Below, piece after piece: positions 42,205-48,390 of a stretch of 64,000 bases of DNA. The position numbers and the translations under genes were made by a program. How positions within the stretch are numbered: the first letter of the stretch is position 1; the number at the start of each line of letters is the position of its first letter. The DNA lies in assembly GCF_001677475.2 (NCBI RefSeq), contig NZ_CP015229.1; one strand, 5' to 3'. Below the pieces are notes generated by a model that saw only the letters and a list, made by a program, of their open reading frames with translations, had not been told where the DNA came from and did not search any database. The stretch comes from Escherichia coli (lineage in GTDB: Bacteria > Pseudomonadota > Gammaproteobacteria > Enterobacterales > Enterobacteriaceae).

Positions 42205-44367
42205 ATGGACGTTTCTTACCTGCTCGACAGCCTTAATGACAAACAGCGCGAAGCGGTGGCCGCGCCACGCAGCAACCTTCTGGTGCTGGCGGGCGCGGGC
42301 AGTGGTAAGACGCGCGTACTGGTGCATCGTATCGCCTGGCTGATGAGCGTGGAAAACTGCTCGCCATACTCGATTATGGCGGTAACGTTTACCAACAAAG
42401 CGGCGGCAGAGATGCGTCATCGTATTGGGCAGCTGATGGGCACCAGCCAGGGCGGCATGTGGGTCGGCACCTTCCACGGGCTGGCGCACCGTCTGCTGCG
42501 TGCGCACCATATGGACGCCAATCTGCCGCAGGATTTTCAGATCCTCGACAGCGAGGACCAGCTACGCCTGCTCAAACGCCTAATCAAGGCGATGAACCTC
42601 GACGAGAAGCAGTGGCCGCCGCGCCAGGCAATGTGGTACATCAACAGCCAGAAAGATGAAGGCCTGCGTCCACATCATATTCAAAGCTACGGTAATCCGG
42701 TGGAGCAGACCTGGCAGAAGGTGTATCAGGCGTATCAGGAAGCGTGTGACCGCGCGGGCCTGGTGGACTTCGCCGAGCTGCTGCTACGTGCTCACGAGTT
42801 GTGGCTTAACAAGCCGCATATCCTTCAGCACTATCGCGAACGGTTTACCAATATCCTGGTGGACGAATTCCAGGATACCAACAACATTCAATACGCGTGG
42901 ATCCGCCTGCTGGCGGGCGATACCGGCAAAGTGATGATCGTTGGCGATGACGATCAGTCAATCTACGGCTGGCGCGGAGCGCAGGTGGAGAATATTCAGC
43001 GTTTCCTCAATGATTTCCCCGGTGCTGAAACTATCCGTCTGGAGCAGAACTACCGCTCTACCAGCAATATTCTGAGCGCCGCGAACGCCCTGATTGAAAA
43101 CAACAACGGGCGTTTGGGTAAAAAACTGTGGACCGATGGCGCGGACGGTGAGCCTATTTCCCTCTATTGCGCTTTTAACGAACTCGACGAAGCGCGTTTT
43201 GTGGTTAACCGTATCAAGACCTGGCAGGACAACGGTGGGGCGCTTGCCGAGTGCGCCATTCTCTACCGCAGCAACGCCCAGTCGCGTGTACTGGAAGAGG
43301 CCTTATTACAGGCGAGTATGCCGTACCGTATTTACGGCGGGATGCGCTTCTTCGAACGCCAGGAAATCAAAGATGCGCTCTCGTATCTGCGCCTGATTGC
43401 CAACCGTAACGACGACGCGGCCTTTGAGCGTGTGGTGAATACGCCAACGCGGGGTATTGGTGACCGGACGCTGGACGTGGTACGTCAGACATCGCGCGAT
43501 CGCCAGTTAACACTCTGGCAGGCATGTCGTGAACTGTTGCAGGAAAAAGCCCTCGCCGGACGTGCTGCCAGTGCCTTGCAACGGTTTATGGAACTGATCG
43601 ACGCCTTAGCGCAGGAAACTGCCGATATGCCGCTGCATGTACAGACTGACCGGGTCATTAAAGACTCCGGCCTGCGCACCATGTACGAGCAGGAGAAGGG
43701 CGAAAAAGGCCAGACGCGTATCGAAAACTTAGAGGAACTGGTGACGGCGACGCGCCAGTTCAGCTACAACGAAGAAGACGAAGATTTAATGCCGCTGCAG
43801 GCGTTCCTCTCCCATGCGGCACTGGAAGCAGGTGAAGGGCAGGCGGATACCTGGCAGGATGCGGTGCAGTTGATGACGCTACACTCGGCGAAAGGTCTGG
43901 AGTTCCCGCAGGTGTTTATCGTCGGTATGGAAGAGGGCATGTTCCCAAGCCAGATGTCGCTGGATGAAGGCGGACGTCTGGAAGAAGAACGCCGTCTGGC
44001 CTACGTTGGCGTAACCCGCGCGATGCAGAAACTGACGCTGACCTACGCGGAAACCCGCCGTCTGTATGGCAAAGAAGTTTACCATCGCCCGTCGCGCTTT
44101 ATCGGCGAGCTGCCGGAAGAGTGTGTGGAAGAGGTGCGCCTGCGCGCCACGGTAAGCCGCCCGGTCAGCCATCAACGGATGGGTACGCCGATGGTCGAGA
44201 ACGACAGCGGCTACAAGCTCGGCCAGCGCGTACGCCACGCTAAGTTTGGTGAAGGCACCATCGTCAATATGGAAGGCAGTGGCGAGCATAGCCGTTTGCA
44301 GGTGGCATTCCAGGGCCAGGGTATTAAATGGCTGGTGGCGGCTTACGCCCGGTTGGAGACGGTGTGA
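42205..44367 (+). CDS. uvrD: DNA helicase II
   Basis: Translation from ATG 42205 [38 protein letters not shown]..., 720 aa. Confidence 0.95.
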   Translation: MDVSYLLDSLNDKQREAVAAPRSNLLVLAGAGSGKTRVLVHRIAWLMSVENCSPYSIMAVTFTNKAAAEMRHRIGQLMGTSQGGMWVGTFHGLAHRLLRAHHMDANLPQDFQILDSEDQLRLLKRLIKAMNLDEKQWPPRQAMWYINSQKDEGLRPHHIQSYGNPVEQTWQKVYQAYQEACDRAGLVDFAELLLRAHELWLNKPHILQHYRERFTNILVDEFQDTNNIQYAWIRLLAGDTGKVMIVGDDDQSIYGWRGAQVENIQRFLNDFPGAETIRLEQNYRSTSNILSAANALIENNNGRLGKKLWTDGADGEPISLYCAFNELDEARFVVNRIKTWQDNGGALAECAILYRSNAQSRVLEEALLQASMPYRIYGGMRFFERQEIKDALSYLRLIANRNDDAAFERVVNTPTRGIGDRTLDVVRQTSRDRQLTLWQACRELLQEKALAGRAASALQRFMELIDALAQETADMPLHVQTDRVIKDSGLRTMYEQEKGEKGQTRIENLEELVTATRQFSYNEEDEDLMPLQAFLSHAALEAGEGQADTWQDAVQLMTLHSAKGLEFPQVFIVGMEEGMFPSQMSLDEGGRLEEERRLAYVGVTRAMQKLTLTYAETRRLYGKEVYHRPSRFIGELPEECVEEVRLRATVSRPVSHQRMGTPMVENDSGYKLGQRVRHAKFGEGTIVNMEGSGEHSRLQVAFQGQGIKWLVAAYARLETV

Positions 44368-44371
44368 CGTT

Positions 44372-44402
44372 GCGGAATGCGGTGCGCCACACCGCATTCC
44401 GC
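44372..44402. terminator. Palindromic hairpin (13-bp stem) between convergent uvrD and the DUF62 gene; candidate bidirectional terminator
   Basis: gcggaatgcggtg cgcca caccgcattccgc read directly. Confidence 0.55.
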
Positions 44403-44411
44403 ATCAGCACC

Positions 44412-45314
44412 TTACTTAGCGCACTTCTTCACATCAATATTCCAGTTAGCACCAGACGCAACCTGATGTTTCTGCGCGAAATTAGCCATATTCAGCGCCA
44501 CGGAAACATTCAATAAGCTGTTCAGATACACCATCGGCTGTCCTTCCGGCACATCGCCGAAGCTTGCGACATACGGCATTTTCCCTGCGTATTTTTGCTG
44601 GGAACCTTCGGAAATGGTCACACACAACGTGTCGTTGAGTTTGATTCCTGCCTGATTCAGCAACTCGTCGCTGATATTGCTCCAGACGTTGCCGTACTGA
44701 ATATCGAGAATCGGGATATTGCCCTTCACTTCACCTTTTGTTGCTTTTGCTTTCTGATAAGAAAGTTCGACAACTTTTGCAGGAAGCTCTGGCCCCACCT
44801 GTTCGAACGTAATCGCCCCGGAAGCCAGACGCGCCCCTGTGTAGGCATATACATCGCGACCATGGAAGGTATATGACTTTTCGGAACCTTTCAGGCGGTT
44901 GGTTTTTTCATCGATTTGCCGGACGCTCTCAATACCCAGCGATTCCGCCACCAAAGTGAGCGTACCGTTATCCGGTGAAACGAAGTATTGACCGTTTTTG
45001 GTTTTCAGCACTACCGATTTACGGTCAGTGCCTACGCCCGGATCGACCACACTGACAAATACCGAACCTTGCGGCCAGTAGCTGGCTGTCTGATACAGGC
45101 GGTAAGCGCCTTCCCAGATGTTATACGGTGGAATTTCGTGTGTTAAATCAAATATTTTAAGATTATGGTCAACACCGAATGCGACCCCTTTCATCGCCGA
45201 GACGGCACCATCTTTCAGGCTAAAATCAGTTTGTAAAATCAAAGCGTTATCCGCATAAGCGGATGATGATCCCAGACACGTTAATAAAAATAACGTTGCG
45301 AGCGTTTTTTTCAT
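44412..45314 (-). CDS. Secreted DUF62 / SAM hydroxide adenosyltransferase-fold (fluorinase-chlorinase superfamily) protein
   Basis: 300-aa translation; N-terminal signal peptide MKKTLATLFLLTCLGSSSAYA; blocks LILQTDFSLKDGAVSAMKGVAFGV...DLTHEIPPYNIWEGA, FVSPDNGTL, YGNVWSNI, FGDVPEGQPMVYLNS align with conserved blocks of the family as I remember them from SalL-type proteins. Confidence 0.7.
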   Translation of the reverse strand: MKKTLATLFLLTCLGSSSAYADNALILQTDFSLKDGAVSAMKGVAFGVDHNLKIFDLTHEIPPYNIWEGAYRLYQTASYWPQGSVFVSVVDPGVGTDRKSVVLKTKNGQYFVSPDNGTLTLVAESLGIESVRQIDEKTNRLKGSEKSYTFHGRDVYAYTGARLASGAITFEQVGPELPAKVVELSYQKAKATKGEVKGNIPILDIQYGNVWSNISDELLNQAGIKLNDTLCVTISEGSQQKYAGKMPYVASFGDVPEGQPMVYLNSLLNVSVALNMANFAQKHQVASGANWNIDVKKCAK

Positions 45315-45396
45315 TTTTGTTTCCCTTCATTTATCTGATAATTTTCCAGCTGTGTAGCCAGCCCCAGTTTGTCTGGCCTCCTCGAGTGTACAATGC

Positions 45397-46161
45397 TTAA
45401 CCTTTCCGCTCGACGGAAATCATGGTAACAAAAGGATAGCGTTGCCACGGGATTGCCCCGCCTTTCATATACATATGTGAAATCGTGCCATCAAGATAAA
45501 GCAGCTGCTCAACGTTCAGTTTCGCTTTGGCATAACAGGCAAAATCATAAAAATTTGTCGCCTGCTGGCTCAACAAAAACACGGCGCTCCCTTGTTTATT
45601 AATCCCAACACCGTTACGAATTTTACGTGAGGCGACGTTGGGATGAATACGCGGATTAATTACGCCGTTTTCCATCAACATTGGCCCTGACTGCACCGCA
45701 AACTGAATCTCTTTACTGGTTTTGAAGGCATCCAGACGAACGATGCCGACTTTATCTCCCGCGACATAAAACACGCCGCCAGGACGGATAAAGAAATTCC
45801 CTTCACCTGAAGCGAGATTTAACGCCACCTTCTGCTGACCGTTTTCGATGTACAAACCGAGCGGCGCATAGCTTTCATCATAGATGCCGCCGTTCATCGC
45901 CATCTGCACCTGACCCTGACTATTCATATCCGCCAGCAGAGCATGTAACGTTCCCCACGCTTCGGCATTGGCTTTTTGCCAGTACATTTTCACCCGCTCT
46001 GTTTGAGGATTAACGGTATACGCCTGTACGGTCAGCGCCGGATCTGAGAGTGCGCAATCATCAGCGGCAACAGCAAACAAGGGAAGTAAGGTGAGGGCGA
46101 GAAAAATCCGTTTGAGATTCAAGGTGATCATTCCTTTACCAATGAGTAGCCGATGCGCCAT
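45397..46161 (-). CDS. yigE: DUF2233-family (phosphodiester glycosidase-like) secreted protein
   Basis: 254-aa translation with signal-like N-terminus ...LKRIFLALTLLPLFAVAA. Confidence 0.85.
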   Translation of the reverse strand: MAHRLLIGKGMITLNLKRIFLALTLLPLFAVAADDCALSDPALTVQAYTVNPQTERVKMYWQKANAEAWGTLHALLADMNSQGQVQMAMNGGIYDESYAPLGLYIENGQQKVALNLASGEGNFFIRPGGVFYVAGDKVGIVRLDAFKTSKEIQFAVQSGPMLMENGVINPRIHPNVASRKIRNGVGINKQGSAVFLLSQQATNFYDFACYAKAKLNVEQLLYLDGTISHMYMKGGAIPWQRYPFVTMISVERKG

Positions 46162-46377
46162 TATAGGTCCTGGATGTGGGATTTTTTTATCCTGTTAGCG
46201 ACCTTGACGAGTACCAAAAAGCGCGAAGTTCAACTATTGTTCTGTGGTGTTCTGTTGCGTGTTGACGGCAAAATTTTGCTGGCGTAACATGCGCGCACGA
46301 TCACTCTAAGAGGACATTCGCCTTGGACACACCCAGTAGATACTGGCTCACTATCCTGTCATCCAGGATCAACTCCT

Positions 46378-46405
46378 AAGGCTATCCCTTTTTGCTGATA
46401 GCCTT
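46378..46405 (+). promoter_or_regulatory. Stem-loop in the long corA 5' leader
   Basis: aaggctatc / gatagcctt 9-bp stem with 10-nt loop, about 125 nt upstream of the corA start. Confidence 0.35.
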
Positions 46406-46530
46406 AGCGGTTGTCAGCGACCTCAATTTTTCCCGTCGCGCTGAGTCAGGCTGTTTAATGGTCTGAAACCCAATTTGTTTCTGTGTGCCCACCGAACTGT
46501 CCGATATTTTAAGCATTGGGAGTCCCGGTC

Positions 46531-47521: not shown

Positions 47522-47902
47522 TCAAAGGCTCCAGGTATTTAACCCTTTTACCTCTTTCTCATAAAACCATTTGTTCGTGTTAACAGCAACATAGGCTGCT
47601 ACGGCAATTCCCAGAATGTTAACGCCAATTAGTGCACCAACAAATAGAGATAGAATGCCAAGTAATAGAACTATAATTGCTTTTTTCCATAATCCTAGAA
47701 CAAATAAATAGATCCAGGAACAGAAGAAAGCAATGAAATTCATTTGAATAGTTAATCGTTGTCTTACTTTTAATGTTTTAAATGCTGCTTTATATTCTGG
47801 TGTTGCCCCCCAGAATCCAGGAAAGCCATGTTGATCATAAAAATTAAATCGGTATTTCCATTTTTCACTTAATGAACCATCGTTCATATATTCCTTACTC
47901 AT
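47522..47902 (-). CDS. yigF: Small inner-membrane protein of unknown function
   Basis: Translation MSKEYMNDGSLSEKWKYRFNFYDQHGFPGFWGATPEYKAAFK... with two TM segments; AT-rich. Confidence 0.8.
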   Translation of the reverse strand: MSKEYMNDGSLSEKWKYRFNFYDQHGFPGFWGATPEYKAAFKTLKVRQRLTIQMNFIAFFCSWIYLFVLGLWKKAIIVLLLGILSLFVGALIGVNILGIAVAAYVAVNTNKWFYEKEVKGLNTWSL

Positions 47903-47915
47903 AAATACACCATAA

Positions 47916-48296
47916 CTATTGTTTTGATGAATCAGTAGGTGCAAGCATTAGCATACTGAAAGTGGAAAAATAACAAATCAAAAAAATCATCGAACCATTG
48001 CCTGAACAATCAAAATGTTCGGCTATCATTGTGATGATAGAGATGATATATACTGCTAATGTACCAAAAACATAAGTTTTTATATATATGAAACCACTAT
48101 CACGGAGTCGTTGGCAATTCATGTTGATGACGAGATAATGGAGTGCGATGGTAGAGACAATAACAAGAAAACCTGCGTCCCCATCGTTAAAAAAGATAAT
48201 AAGAAAGGCAAAAATGAAATTTATTAAAATAAATGAAAATATATAACGACGTCTGGAAATCTTACCGTTAGATGTTGGGATAAATATACGCAACAT
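47916..48296 (-). CDS. yigG: Small inner-membrane protein of unknown function; start uncertain (could be 48332 or 48356)
   Basis: Translation ...[36 protein letters not shown]...; AT-rich. Confidence 0.75.
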
Positions 48297-48390
48297 AAAT
48301 TTTACATCCTTGTGTGAGTCTCCTGTCAGCATGGCAATATGCCCACTCTCATGCAAGAGTCGGCATATTTTTTCAGAATATATTTATTTT

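Follow-up and report, generated by a model that had tools for sequence, protein, structure and literature searches.

A predicted exported DUF62 protein encoded between uvrD and yigE in Escherichia coli: a candidate periplasmic enzyme of S-adenosylmethionine scavenging

The characterised DUF62 hydrolases are all cytoplasmic and are read as enzymes that repair epimerised S-adenosyl-L-methionine (SAM) (PMC10491745), and the family has so far been explained only in these terms or as a source of rare halogenases. The mark that defines the hydrolases against the halogenases is a His-Arg-Asp triad, which the latter lack (PMC10491745). The E. coli protein considered here differs from the characterised hydrolases in carrying a predicted cleavable signal peptide, and our search of the literature brought up no account of DUF62 proteins that are exported or linked to transporters.

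The gene occupies the minus strand of the 64,000-nucleotide window (the whole stretch of E. coli DNA that was analysed), in the interval between uvrD and yigE to which the sequence-only reading had assigned it. The features to which we refer are the following.

42205..44367, plus strand: uvrD (DNA helicase II), the convergent core flanking gene, with its stop at 44367
44364..44410, no strand assigned: inverted repeat between the convergent uvrD and DUF62 stops (21-nt arms, 86% complementary, 5-nt loop)
44412..45314, minus strand: coding sequence of the predicted exported DUF62/SAM_HAT protein (ATG start, 300 aa; RefSeq WP_000751612.1 of EDL933)
44862..44864, minus strand: H151 codon (TFHGRD), the His of the triad, from the alignment (plus-strand 'atg' is minus-strand CAT)
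45021..45023, minus strand: R98 codon (GTDR), the Arg of the triad, from the alignment
45042..45044, minus strand: D91 codon (VVDPGVG), the Asp of the triad, from the alignment, with the triad as in PMC10491745
45252..45314, minus strand: predicted signal peptide, codons 1-21 (MKKTLATLFLLTCLGSSSAYA), from Sec/SPase I rules and conservation
45315..45396, minus strand: yigE-DUF62 spacer of 82 bp, with neither promoter nor terminator in a consensus scan
45322..45327, minus strand: Shine-Dalgarno-like AAGGGA, 7 nt 5' of the ATG, by direct sequence reading
45397..46161, minus strand: yigE, phosphodiester glycosidase family, with a signal peptide of its own; the same-strand upstream neighbour

RefSeq labels WP_000751612.1 'SAM hydrolase/SAM-dependent halogenase family protein', that is, at the family level only. 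The inverted repeat is likely a terminator hairpin shared by uvrD and the DUF62 gene. Given that the consensus scan of positions 44300-46500 for promoters and terminators returned nothing above chance and left the yigE-DUF62 spacer empty, co-transcription of the gene with yigE is probable. As a functional partner, yigE was rejected: it is kept with or without the DUF62 gene and is unlinked to it in every other taxon. A search for the MetJ operator (AGACGTCTAGACGTCT, up to 3 mismatches) gave zero matches within the window, so that met-regulon control in E. coli is without evidence.

The membership of the protein in DUF62, recognised in the sequence-only reading from conserved blocks, is borne out by comparisons of domains, sequence and fold. 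The paired Pfam domains (PF01887 + PF20257) are matched at residues 26-174 (SAM_HAT_N, E 4.8e-53) and 198-291 (SAM_HAT_C, E 6.7e-18); the sequence matches in PDB start with 2zbu (7e-44) and extend down through SalL, PH0463, MJ1651 and the fluorinases; and an AF2 model of the 300-aa protein (overall pLDDT 92.2) has only chains of DUF62 proteins, SalL or FlA among its top 40 Foldseek matches, led by 2zbu (E 1.3e-30, target-normalised TM 0.91), with SalL and PH0463 also matched at E~1e-30. The triad is intact, with D91, R98 and H151 aligned to the 2zbu motifs vvDygvgtsR and tfHgrd, and the positions that bind ribose, adenine and the methionine amine (D30, N209, D35, D204) are retained as well. 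In an alignment of 30 diverse homologues, the triad and ligand-binding residues are conserved, D30, R153 and D154 being invariant and D91 nearly so. The halogenase pocket (Tyr70/Gly131 of SalL, Ser158/Thr80 of FlA) is not present, and the triad stands in its place; the fluorinase model TIGR04507 is matched at 87 bits, under its cut-off of 400. Thus, by the presence of the intact triad, the protein is predicted to be a DUF62 protein of the SAM hydrolase type and not a halogenase, nor a binding protein that has lost catalysis. Furthermore, the scores against the NCBIfam '(R)-S-adenosyl-L-methionine hydrolase' equivalogs fall below the cut-offs (132.3 versus 350 bits for NF058624 and 114.6 versus 470 for NF053629), so that by these profiles the protein is a member of the family and not an equivalog of the characterised (R)-SAM hydrolases.

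The protein begins with MKKTLATLFLLTCLGSSSAYA, followed by DNALILQTDF. Sec export and SPase I cleavage call for a positive n-region, a hydrophobic stretch of 7-15 residues (h-region) and small residues at positions -3 and -1, and a rule-based check finds all three, namely the n-region MKK (+2), the h-region TLATLFLLTCLG (12 residues, mean Kyte-Doolittle 1.97) and the c-region SSSAYA, in which Ala occupies both -3 and -1. The AF2 model shows the N-terminus as a detached helix of low confidence (pLDDT 56-61 versus 92 overall), with residue 24 as the start of the first core strand; the predicted cleavage after A21 would leave D22 as the mature N-terminus, two residues ahead of that strand. A lipoprotein (SPase II) reading of LLTC13 was rejected under the lipobox criterion [LVI][ASTVI][GAS]C with Cys at least at position 15, Thr being at -1 and the Cys too early; Cys13 is also not conserved in H. 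pylori or Aeromonas. Lipoboxes do occur in some of the more distant homologues. Each of the 80 closest species-level homologues, which come from nine phyla, carries an N-terminal extension of the signal-peptide or lipoprotein kind (79 pass a hydrophobic-window test and the 80th is also signal-peptide-like), the presence of the extension being conserved and its sequence not. Among the top 150 representatives of 50%-identity clusters, we counted 68 sequences of exported-like type, 15 of them with a lipobox, as against 46 cytoplasmic-like and 8 ambiguous ones; the other 28 are fragments. The Sec signal peptide that had been proposed from the sequence alone is therefore supported both by the n/h/c rules and by conservation; the exported member that was regarded there as unexpected is no one-off, as predicted exported DUF62 proteins are a large clade across Gram-negative phyla. 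Cys231 and Cys298 are kept together in E. coli, H. pylori, Pasteurellaceae, Aeromonas, Neisseriales and Cellvibrionales and are both gone in two outliers, a joint presence and absence as expected for a candidate periplasmic disulfide.

Within E. coli, the gene was found in 2413 of 5426 complete genomes, the carriers including EDL933 and BL21, and in K-12-type genomes a 146-bp REP-containing spacer stands in its place, in agreement with the absence from K-12 and the accessory status given in the sequence-only reading. Of the outcomes that this reading had named as refuting it, none was observed. The gene-less O111:H8 and HS have a 146-bp spacer identical to the K-12 type. Instead of 'inserted', it is more apt to speak of a polymorphism with two states, the gene or the REP spacer, which is old within E. 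coli, with a dS of 0.10 between alleles. The dN/dS values, 0.066 in the comparison with H. pylori and 0.097 in that with EDL933, are those of a gene under strong purifying selection.

The nearest relative in our searches is HP0709 of Helicobacter pylori (jhp0648; UniProt O25413), and in one of these searches no homologue fell between 88% and 96% identity. Like the E. coli protein, HP0709 consists of 300 aa (88-91% amino acid and 83% nucleotide identity), and it shares with that protein the signal peptide, the Cys pair and a C-terminal KKC. Unlike the accessory E. coli gene, it apparently belongs to the core genome of H. pylori and H. acinonychis, and its place is between mraW/HP0708 and homA. 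HP0709 has a GC content of 44.5% within a locus of 38% GC. The nesting of the E. coli/H. pylori pair among Pasteurellaceae and Aeromonas genes indicates what would be an old horizontal transfer. HP0709 is expressed and, alongside metI, up 2.9-fold in biofilm; it is also listed in an outer membrane vesicle (OMV) proteome and seroreactive, two observations that speak indirectly for export. It carries a SNP for which a GWAS gave an association with gastric cancer. H. pylori itself has no de novo purine synthesis, being a purine auxotroph, and it requires methionine.

The gene stands alone amid unrelated housekeeping genes in E. coli, H. pylori, Aeromonas and Pasteurellaceae, so the functional context can come only from homologues with 43-65% identity. 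Across the loci of Aeromonas, Pasteurellaceae, Neisseriales and other gammaproteobacteria no conserved partner was found, the neighbours being sbcB, dnaB, glgCA, prpD and others. Further tight neighbours in diverse loci, namely HemW, isocitrate dehydrogenase, an RND pump, PRPP synthetase and a glycerophosphodiesterase, were set aside because their linkage looks lineage-specific and uninformative. In 17 of 80 loci, from Bacteroidota and one Cellvibrionales genome, a TonB-dependent receptor (Plug and barrel domains) is the immediate same-strand neighbour, in both gene orders; these receptors have about 900 aa with an N-terminal CarboxypepD_reg domain, match BtuB in the plug region only, and gave only generic plug or barrel matches in PDB and NCBIfam when searched for specificity. 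An amino-acid permease of the APC/LAT type is adjacent in Calditrichota and Bacteroidota (L038, L049, L061, L081) and metH is one or two genes away in Cytophagales, Bacteroidales and Synergistota (L025, L028, L049, L061), although these adjacencies are few, with four loci each and partly related genomes. An Rfam scan of 37 homologue loci gave as its only matches SAM riboswitches ahead of metH in L049 and L061; in these 37 loci the operons of TonB receptor and DUF62 genes were without an upstream riboswitch, and a cobalamin riboswitch was not found. The nearest non-exported relatives (43-52% identity) are located inside dedicated ECF transporter operons that consist of S, fused AA' and T components and at least two DUF62 paralogues. 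Ahead of one such operon lies a T-box leader (E 2e-20), in which the specifier loop reads AUG followed by A and the UGGU bulge fits an A73 tRNA such as tRNA-Met; the specifier is one nucleotide off the canonical register, so the predicted specificity for Met is probable, short of proof. The context of the homologues points to a putative methionine salvage coupled to uptake.

We propose that the protein is a periplasmic hydrolase that would convert exogenous SAM into adenosine and methionine, a hypothesis to which we assign an even chance; the substrate, the products and the physiological role are what we infer, next to the observed fold, catalytic residues, conserved export signal, purifying selection and neighbourhoods. 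Under this scenario, the protein would be exported by Sec and cleaved at A21|D22, the soluble mature enzyme would assemble in the periplasm, and the triad His151-Arg98-Asp91 would activate water for an attack on C5' of an adenosyl-sulfonium substrate. That substrate would most likely be SAM that reaches the periplasm from the environment or the host, in a pool that would include the spontaneously formed (R)-sulfonium epimer, and the products, adenosine and L-methionine, would be imported into the cell through inner-membrane transporters. To our knowledge, SAM itself is not taken up by E. coli and no SAM importer is known there; since adenosine and methionine are transportable and SAM is not, the enzyme would be the scavenging step. 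A different adenosyl donor, as suggested in the sequence-only reading, is less likely than SAM of extracellular origin, to which both the retention of the methionine-binding acids and the methionine-related gene surroundings of homologues point. The same logic may be shared by Bacteroidota and others, with a TonB-dependent outer-membrane receptor and an amino-acid permease, and by Firmicutes-like organisms, where an ECF transporter would feed cytoplasmic paralogues. In E. coli the gene would be optional and selectively maintained, and the H. pylori copy (HP0709) would be horizontally transferred. Extracellular SAM is chemically unstable, which makes its availability as a nutrient uncertain.

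Among the competing explanations, the one that survives best, unlikely as we consider it, is detoxification or defence in the periplasm, whereby the enzyme would destroy harmful adenosyl-sulfonium compounds before their entry, for instance the inactive (R)-SAM epimer or SAM-like nucleoside antimetabolites of competitors, with no feeding involved. The characterised cytoplasmic DUF62 enzymes indeed select non-biological (R,S)-SAM and are seen as repair or clean-up enzymes (PMC10491745), and the gene in E. coli is accessory and stands alone. However, the energy-consuming TonB/ECF importers and the T-box, a sensor of starvation, to which homologues are coupled speak for acquisition and against exclusion. 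Besides, external (R)-SAM is no obvious threat to E. coli given the lack of a known SAM importer.

A slightly smaller chance attaches to a substrate that is another amino-acid-bearing adenosyl compound, for example S-adenosyl-L-homocysteine (SAH), which would yield homocysteine for MetH, or decarboxylated SAM. The clade is distinct from the characterised equivalogs and the homocysteine-consuming metH adjoins the gene in several phyla, but an SN2 reaction at C5' depends on a good leaving group, SAH is the ligand bound in the PH0463 crystal 2wr8, apparently without turnover, and the conserved acids at the methionine amino group, which fit SAM or SAH alike, are no help for thioether cleavage.

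The binding protein without catalysis that the sequence-only reading envisaged, which in the periplasm would bind adenosine or SAM-like ligands and, for example, deliver them to a transporter, is improbable. The export signal and the transporter neighbours of some homologues are compatible with such a role; the full triad, the intact ligand positions, the strictly kept FHGRD and VVDPGVG and the strong purifying selection (dN/dS 0.06-0.10) speak against it, and the fold is unlike that of any known solute-binding protein family. Even less do we expect the absence of real export, with an internal start (for example TTG, Leu25) or a membrane anchor only and an ordinary cytoplasmic (R)-SAM repair hydrolase as the outcome: an in-frame TTG does occur at residue 25 and close homologues that lack the extension exist, but the ATG has a good Shine-Dalgarno sequence, some homologues have lipoboxes, the Cys pair co-varies and a signal-like extension persists throughout the 80 nearest homologues despite its unconserved sequence. 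Least probable of all is hydroxide attack at C5' of imported adenosylcobalamin, which would supply cob(I)alamin to MetH and for which the neighbouring TonB-dependent receptors and B12-dependent metH as well as the known nucleophilic dealkylation of alkylcobalamins (MMACHC/CblC) speak, but which we dropped because a cobalamin riboswitch was not found in the 37 loci, the more so as the large CarboxypepD_reg-bearing receptors resemble BtuB over the plug only and the DUF62 pocket keeps the methionine-binding acids and is presumably too small for a corrin.

Returning to scavenging of SAM, a broader version of this hypothesis can be advanced tentatively, with a probability somewhat short of an even chance. 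The exported DUF62 proteins and their ECF-linked cytoplasmic sisters would constitute a widespread, undescribed pathway for the acquisition of exogenous SAM as a source of methionine and adenosine, with entry via TonB receptors (Bacteroidota), ECF transporters (Firmicutes) or diffusion through porins (E. coli and H. pylori), and HP0709, which H. pylori would have obtained from a gammaproteobacterium resembling Escherichia, would serve this species as a nutritional factor. If true, DUF62 would have a second physiological role, the scavenging of an abundant cofactor derived from the host or the community, in a clade linked to receptors, permeases, ECF transporters, metH and methionine-sensing leaders, and a function would be at hand for HP0709, a conserved, immunogenic protein of an organism that depends on purine and methionine uptake. 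With BL21 and EDL933 as carriers and K-12 without the gene, the idea is directly testable in common strains. In practical terms, in vitro work on SAM-dependent enzymes in crude or periplasmic extracts could be affected by the putative SAM hydrolase of BL21, a common expression host, and the database names 'adenosyl-chloride synthase/salL' and 'acetolactate synthase' given to the protein are misannotations.

How, then, does the E. coli protein compare with the systems already known? With the DUF62 hydrolases PH0463, MJ1651, 2zbu of T. maritima and StDUF62/SaDUF62 of Salinispora it has in common the two-domain fold (target-normalised TM 0.86-0.91), the Pfam domains, the His-Arg-Asp triad and the contacts to ribose, adenine and methionine; it differs from the characterised ones in sequence, at 30-34% identity, and in that its clade neighbours are uptake systems, and the location expected of (R)-SAM repair hydrolases, the cytoplasm, in which SAM is produced and epimerises, is not the predicted one, a signal peptide or lipobox being present in each of its 80 nearest homologues. 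With the chlorinase SalL and the fluorinase FlA it shares the fold and the SN2 chemistry at C5' of SAM, but where SalL aligns YPETGT and TWYGKD, the E. coli protein has VDPGVGTDR and TFHGRD, and no natural-product cluster surrounds the E. coli gene. Enterobacteria possess several periplasmic hydrolases, such as the 5'-nucleotidase UshA, CpdB, AphA and Ggt, that cleave non-transportable compounds into transportable pieces, and it is these enzymes, unrelated to DUF62 in fold and chemistry, that by analogy would match the proposed logic of scavenging.

The protein encoded by the DUF62 gene in the window belongs, as the sequence-only reading had proposed, to the DUF62 family. Pfam recovers SAM_HAT_N (E 4.8e-53) and SAM_HAT_C (E 6.7e-18), the phmmer matches among PDB sequences are DUF62 proteins, chlorinases and fluorinases only (the top one being T. 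maritima 2zbu, 6.9e-44), and the best 40 Foldseek matches in the PDB to an AF2 model (mean pLDDT 92.2; alignment input of 30 sequences) all have the same fold, with E values down to 1e-30 and target-normalised TM scores of at most 0.91. The gene and its signals are located as follows.

Features of the DUF62 locus (window coordinates)
44412..45314, minus strand: DUF62 ORF, ATG start, 300 aa, N-terminus MKKTLATLFLLTCLGSSSAYADNALILQTDF
45322-45327, minus strand: AAGGGA, Shine-Dalgarno-like element seen in the sequence, 7 nt 5' of the DUF62 ATG
44364-44410: inverted repeat with 21-nt arms, between the uvrD and DUF62 stop codons

The His-Arg-Asp triad of the DUF62 SAM hydrolases (PMC10491745) is complete, with D91 in VVDPGVG, R98 in GTDR and H151 in TFHGRD, and these motifs align with vvDygvgtsR and tfHgrd of 2zbu, whereas the halogenase SalL has YPETGT and TWYGKD at the same positions. 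When 30 diverse relatives are aligned, the ribose-binding Asp (D30), N116, G117, R153 and D154 do not vary, D91 and its VDPxVG motif hardly do, and the acidic D35 and D204 are kept, presumably as counterparts of FlA D21 and D210, the acids that grip the methionine amino group in the fluorinase. The protein scores far below the curated cut-off of the NCBIfam (R)-SAM hydrolase equivalogs (132 bits vs 350) and reaches 87 bits against a fluorinase cut-off of 400. Given the Pfam, PDB and fold matches and the retained triad, yet scores under the cut-offs, the sequence identifies it as a genuine family member with catalytic residues that is not an equivalog of any studied enzyme. Many public records name it 'acetolactate synthase', and H. 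pylori papers use 'adenosyl-chloride synthase / salL'; both names misfit a sequence that retains the triad and shows no halogenase pocket.

The protein is, in our prediction, very probably exported. Residues 1-21 contain the regions of an SPase I signal peptide, namely an n-region MKK, an h-region of 12 residues with a mean hydropathy of 1.97 and a c-region SSSAYA that has Ala at both -3 and -1. The AF2 model shows these 21 residues as a separate low-confidence helix, with the first core strand starting from residue 24; cytoplasmic homologues begin 2-5 residues ahead of that strand (e.g. MKHALVFQSDFG). LLTC13 was ruled out as a lipobox, with Thr at -1 and a Cys that comes too early and is not conserved. 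The strongest argument for export is the conservation of the extension across species. In a homologue scan of one genome per species (GTDB), all of the 80 closest loci, which span Pseudomonadota, Campylobacterota (H. pylori), Bacteroidota, Verrucomicrobiota, Planctomycetota, Acidobacteriota, Calditrichota, Synergistota, Spirochaetota and Thermotogota, encode an N-terminal extension that is basic then hydrophobic, or has a lipobox, and the extension sequences themselves are not conserved; an automated hydrophobic-window test accepts 79 of the 80, and the last one (MKLKTFMLSATVWWGLSALALAQ) is likewise signal-peptide-like. Together with the rule-based n, h and c regions, this bears out the Sec-type signal peptide called by the sequence-only reading. 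C231 and the C-terminal C298 are retained jointly in the subclade of E. coli, H. pylori, Pasteurellaceae, Aeromonas, Neisseriales and Cellvibrionales and are both missing in two outlying sequences, a pattern that would fit a periplasmic disulfide.

N-terminal classes among the best 150 of the 50%-identity cluster representatives, from 8782 homologues
Exported-like: 68, of which 15 with lipobox-like motifs
Cytoplasmic-like: 46
Ambiguous: 8
Fragments: 28

In the window, uvrD (stop at 44367) is convergent with the DUF62 gene, and yigE lies 82 bp upstream on the same strand; since a consensus scan of the yigE-DUF62 spacer gave no promoter and no terminator, co-transcription with yigE is likely. 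By megablast, 2413 of 5426 complete E. coli genomes have the gene, each as a single chromosomal copy, and the carriers include O157:H7 EDL933 (WP_000751612.1), BL21 and other B strains, strain C, UPEC and O145; its product is annotated as 'SAM hydrolase/SAM-dependent halogenase family protein'. The uvrD-yigE locus exists in two states, because the gene-free genomes (K-12-type, HS and O111:H8) carry in its place a 146-bp spacer with REP/BIME-like sequence (…TGTAGGCCGGATAGGGCGTTTACGCCGCATCCGGCA…; L002:4069-4214 of the K-12-type locus vs window 44368-45396), the same in all three. The gene is thus accessory and absent from K-12, in line with the sequence-only reading. Its alleles diverge by up to 5-10% in nucleotides, none of the 2413 complete-genome copies exceeds 97.6% identity to the window allele, and the dS of 0.10 and dN/dS of 0.097 against EDL933 indicate a gene that is old in E. 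coli and under purifying selection. Of the 27 differences from EDL933, 15 fall in a 144-nt patch (window 44775-44918, gene nt 397-540) that may be a recombination tract. Q133 and T138, encoded within the patch, match Aeromonas and not other E. coli or H. pylori alleles. Just past corA there is another presence/absence polymorphism (window 47522-48356 vs L001:7224-8893 of EDL933 and L086:5841-7093 of O111:H8), with yigF-yigG in the window, K-12 and HS, and DUF943 and DUF3289/YPO3983-family genes in EDL933 and O111:H8, the EDL933 site also having a partial corA copy; the window combines the DUF62 gene with yigF-yigG, so the two polymorphisms are unlinked.

In a search of 5.8 billion proteins, the top 46 matches (96-99% identity) all belong to E. 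coli or Shigella. They are followed, with none in between, by proteins from H. pylori and H. acinonychis that are exactly 300 aa long and 87-88% identical. The H. pylori copy (L003:6001-6903, CP079055.1, compared with window 44412-45314), with uvrA/HP_OMP/mraW/small ORF on one side and a 660-aa ORF and, further off, rpoN on the other, sits at the HP0709 locus; primers 'jhp0648/HP0709' flank homA/B. The E. coli and H. pylori genes are 83% identical in nucleotides (88%, 96% and 64% at codon positions 1, 2 and 3) and their proteins 88-91% identical, with a dS of ~1.0 and a dN/dS of 0.066. The GC content of the H. pylori copy, 44.5%, is 6-7 points over its surroundings (locus 38%), and that of the E. 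coli copy is 47.6% vs 52% for the window. A neighbour-joining tree built from the mature regions places the two as sisters within a gammaproteobacterial group (identities: Pasteurellaceae 70-75%, Aeromonas 74-77%, a Neisseriales MAG 74%). The simplest reading would be an old transfer from the Escherichia lineage, or a related gammaproteobacterial donor, to the ancestor of H. pylori and H. acinonychis; we found no description of such an inter-phylum transfer in the literature, and no characterisation of HP0709 function in the part that is searchable. A GWAS found HP0709 SNPs associated with gastric cancer and names the gene 'adenosyl-chloride synthase' with 'conflicting annotations'; an OMV proteome lists the protein, it elicits serum antibodies, and in biofilm RNA-seq the gene is 2.9-fold up, alongside metI (2.2-fold).

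So what could an exported DUF62 protein do? The gene stands alone in E. coli, H. pylori, Aeromonas and Pasteurellaceae, where its neighbours are housekeeping genes unrelated to it. Clustering of neighbour ORFs in more distant members of this exported clade (57-67% identity) gave one dominant partner of 830-950 aa, present at 17 of 80 loci (Chitinophagaceae, Pedobacter, Flavihumibacter, Bacteroidales and one Cellvibrionales genome), which directly adjoins DUF62 on the same strand, in either gene order; the two genes overlap by as much as 40 nt or stand up to 270 nt apart. The partner is a TonB-dependent receptor, and the Bacteroidota copy that was scanned (L055) has Plug, beta-barrel and N-terminal CarboxypepD_reg domains. 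An APC/LAT-family amino-acid permease abuts DUF62 in L038 (Caldithrix, 4-nt overlap), in the Bacteroidales loci L049 and L061, and in comparison locus L081; metH is next to it, or almost next to it, in L025 (Siphonobacter), L028 (Dethiosulfovibrio, Synergistota), L049 and L061. Both L049 and L061 come from uncultured Bacteroidales genomes and have a SAM-I riboswitch (L049:2060-2169, L061:7098-7210) in front of a metH that directly follows the exported DUF62 gene, the order in L061 being TonB receptor, APC permease, exported DUF62, SAM-I riboswitch, metH. At four Opitutaceae/Verrucomicrobiota loci (L027, L040, L056, L063), a radical-SAM HemW-like gene runs into the exported DUF62 gene, ending 4 nt inside it or overlapping it, which may reflect synteny within the lineage or a connection through SAM.

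Of the relatives that are not exported, the nearest (43-52% identity; metagenomic, Firmicutes-like) lie inside dedicated ECF-transporter operons with a RibU-like-family S component, a fused double ATPase (AA'), a CbiQ-type T component and two, up to five, DUF62 paralogues in tandem. The multiple paralogues may form heterotrimers or act on different substrates.

ECF-DUF62 loci and leader
L103:1-7164; L101:344-2890; L088:1073-5855; L091:1531-6440; L094:6001-10913: ECF-DUF62 loci
L088:784-1002, plus strand: T-box leader before the operon, 89.5 bits (slightly under the Rfam gathering score of 93), E 2e-20

The 3' side of the L088 specifier loop reads AGAUGAA. With the canonical loop, which we take to be GAA-NNN-A as in the O. 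iheyensis glyQ leader, the in-register triplet is the stop codon UGA, and AUG then A lies one nucleotide off register; UGA is not credible as a specifier because the operon genes are intact under code 11. The antiterminator bulge UGGU fits a tRNA whose discriminator base is A73, for instance tRNA-Met, and does not fit tRNA-Asp or tRNA-Trp; the leader is probably Met-specific.

Three independent contexts, that is, receptor/permease/metH, ECF transporter and starvation-sensing leader, thus tie the subfamily to import and methionine, and with the SAM-hydrolase machinery intact, scavenging of SAM would be the most economical mechanism. To pass the outer membrane, exogenous SAM would use porins in E. 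coli and H. pylori and the TonB receptor elsewhere; the periplasmic enzyme would hydrolyse it to adenosine and L-methionine, to be imported via existing transporters. H. pylori lacks de novo purine synthesis and requires methionine (defined-medium studies of the 1990s), so both products would be needed nutrients. External SAM would be partly epimerised, and this would suit the family, other members of which are reported to be (R)-selective (PMC10491745). We consider adenosyl-sulfonium hydrolase activity likely and give the complete scavenging model an even chance.

Among the alternatives, detoxification of (R)-SAM or SAM-like antimetabolites seems unlikely, and a different adenosyl amino-acid substrate, for instance SAH to supply MetH, slightly less likely again: its cleavage would be chemically harder, and SAH is a bound ligand in the PH0463 structure 2wr8. 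That the protein is a non-catalytic binder, as the sequence-only reading had suggested, is contradicted by the conserved triad and is quite improbable. Lack of export, or a mis-called start, is more doubtful still in the face of the extension at 80 of 80 loci. De-adenosylation of adenosylcobalamin is the least likely, as no cobalamin riboswitches were found at 37 scanned homologue loci and the receptors match BtuB over the plug region only.

The existence of the gene is already known, since RefSeq catalogues it under a family-level name. In the literature open to our search we found no publication on exported DUF62 proteins, the TonB/ECF link or the E. coli/H. pylori relationship, and an earlier mention may exist. 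An exported DUF62 protein should be moderately surprising to specialists, and with the gene present in BL21 and EDL933 and absent from K-12 the idea can be tested at once. Compared with the known DUF62 enzymes, the fold and the catalytic apparatus are the same, the compartment would be different and the physiological role is probably different as well.
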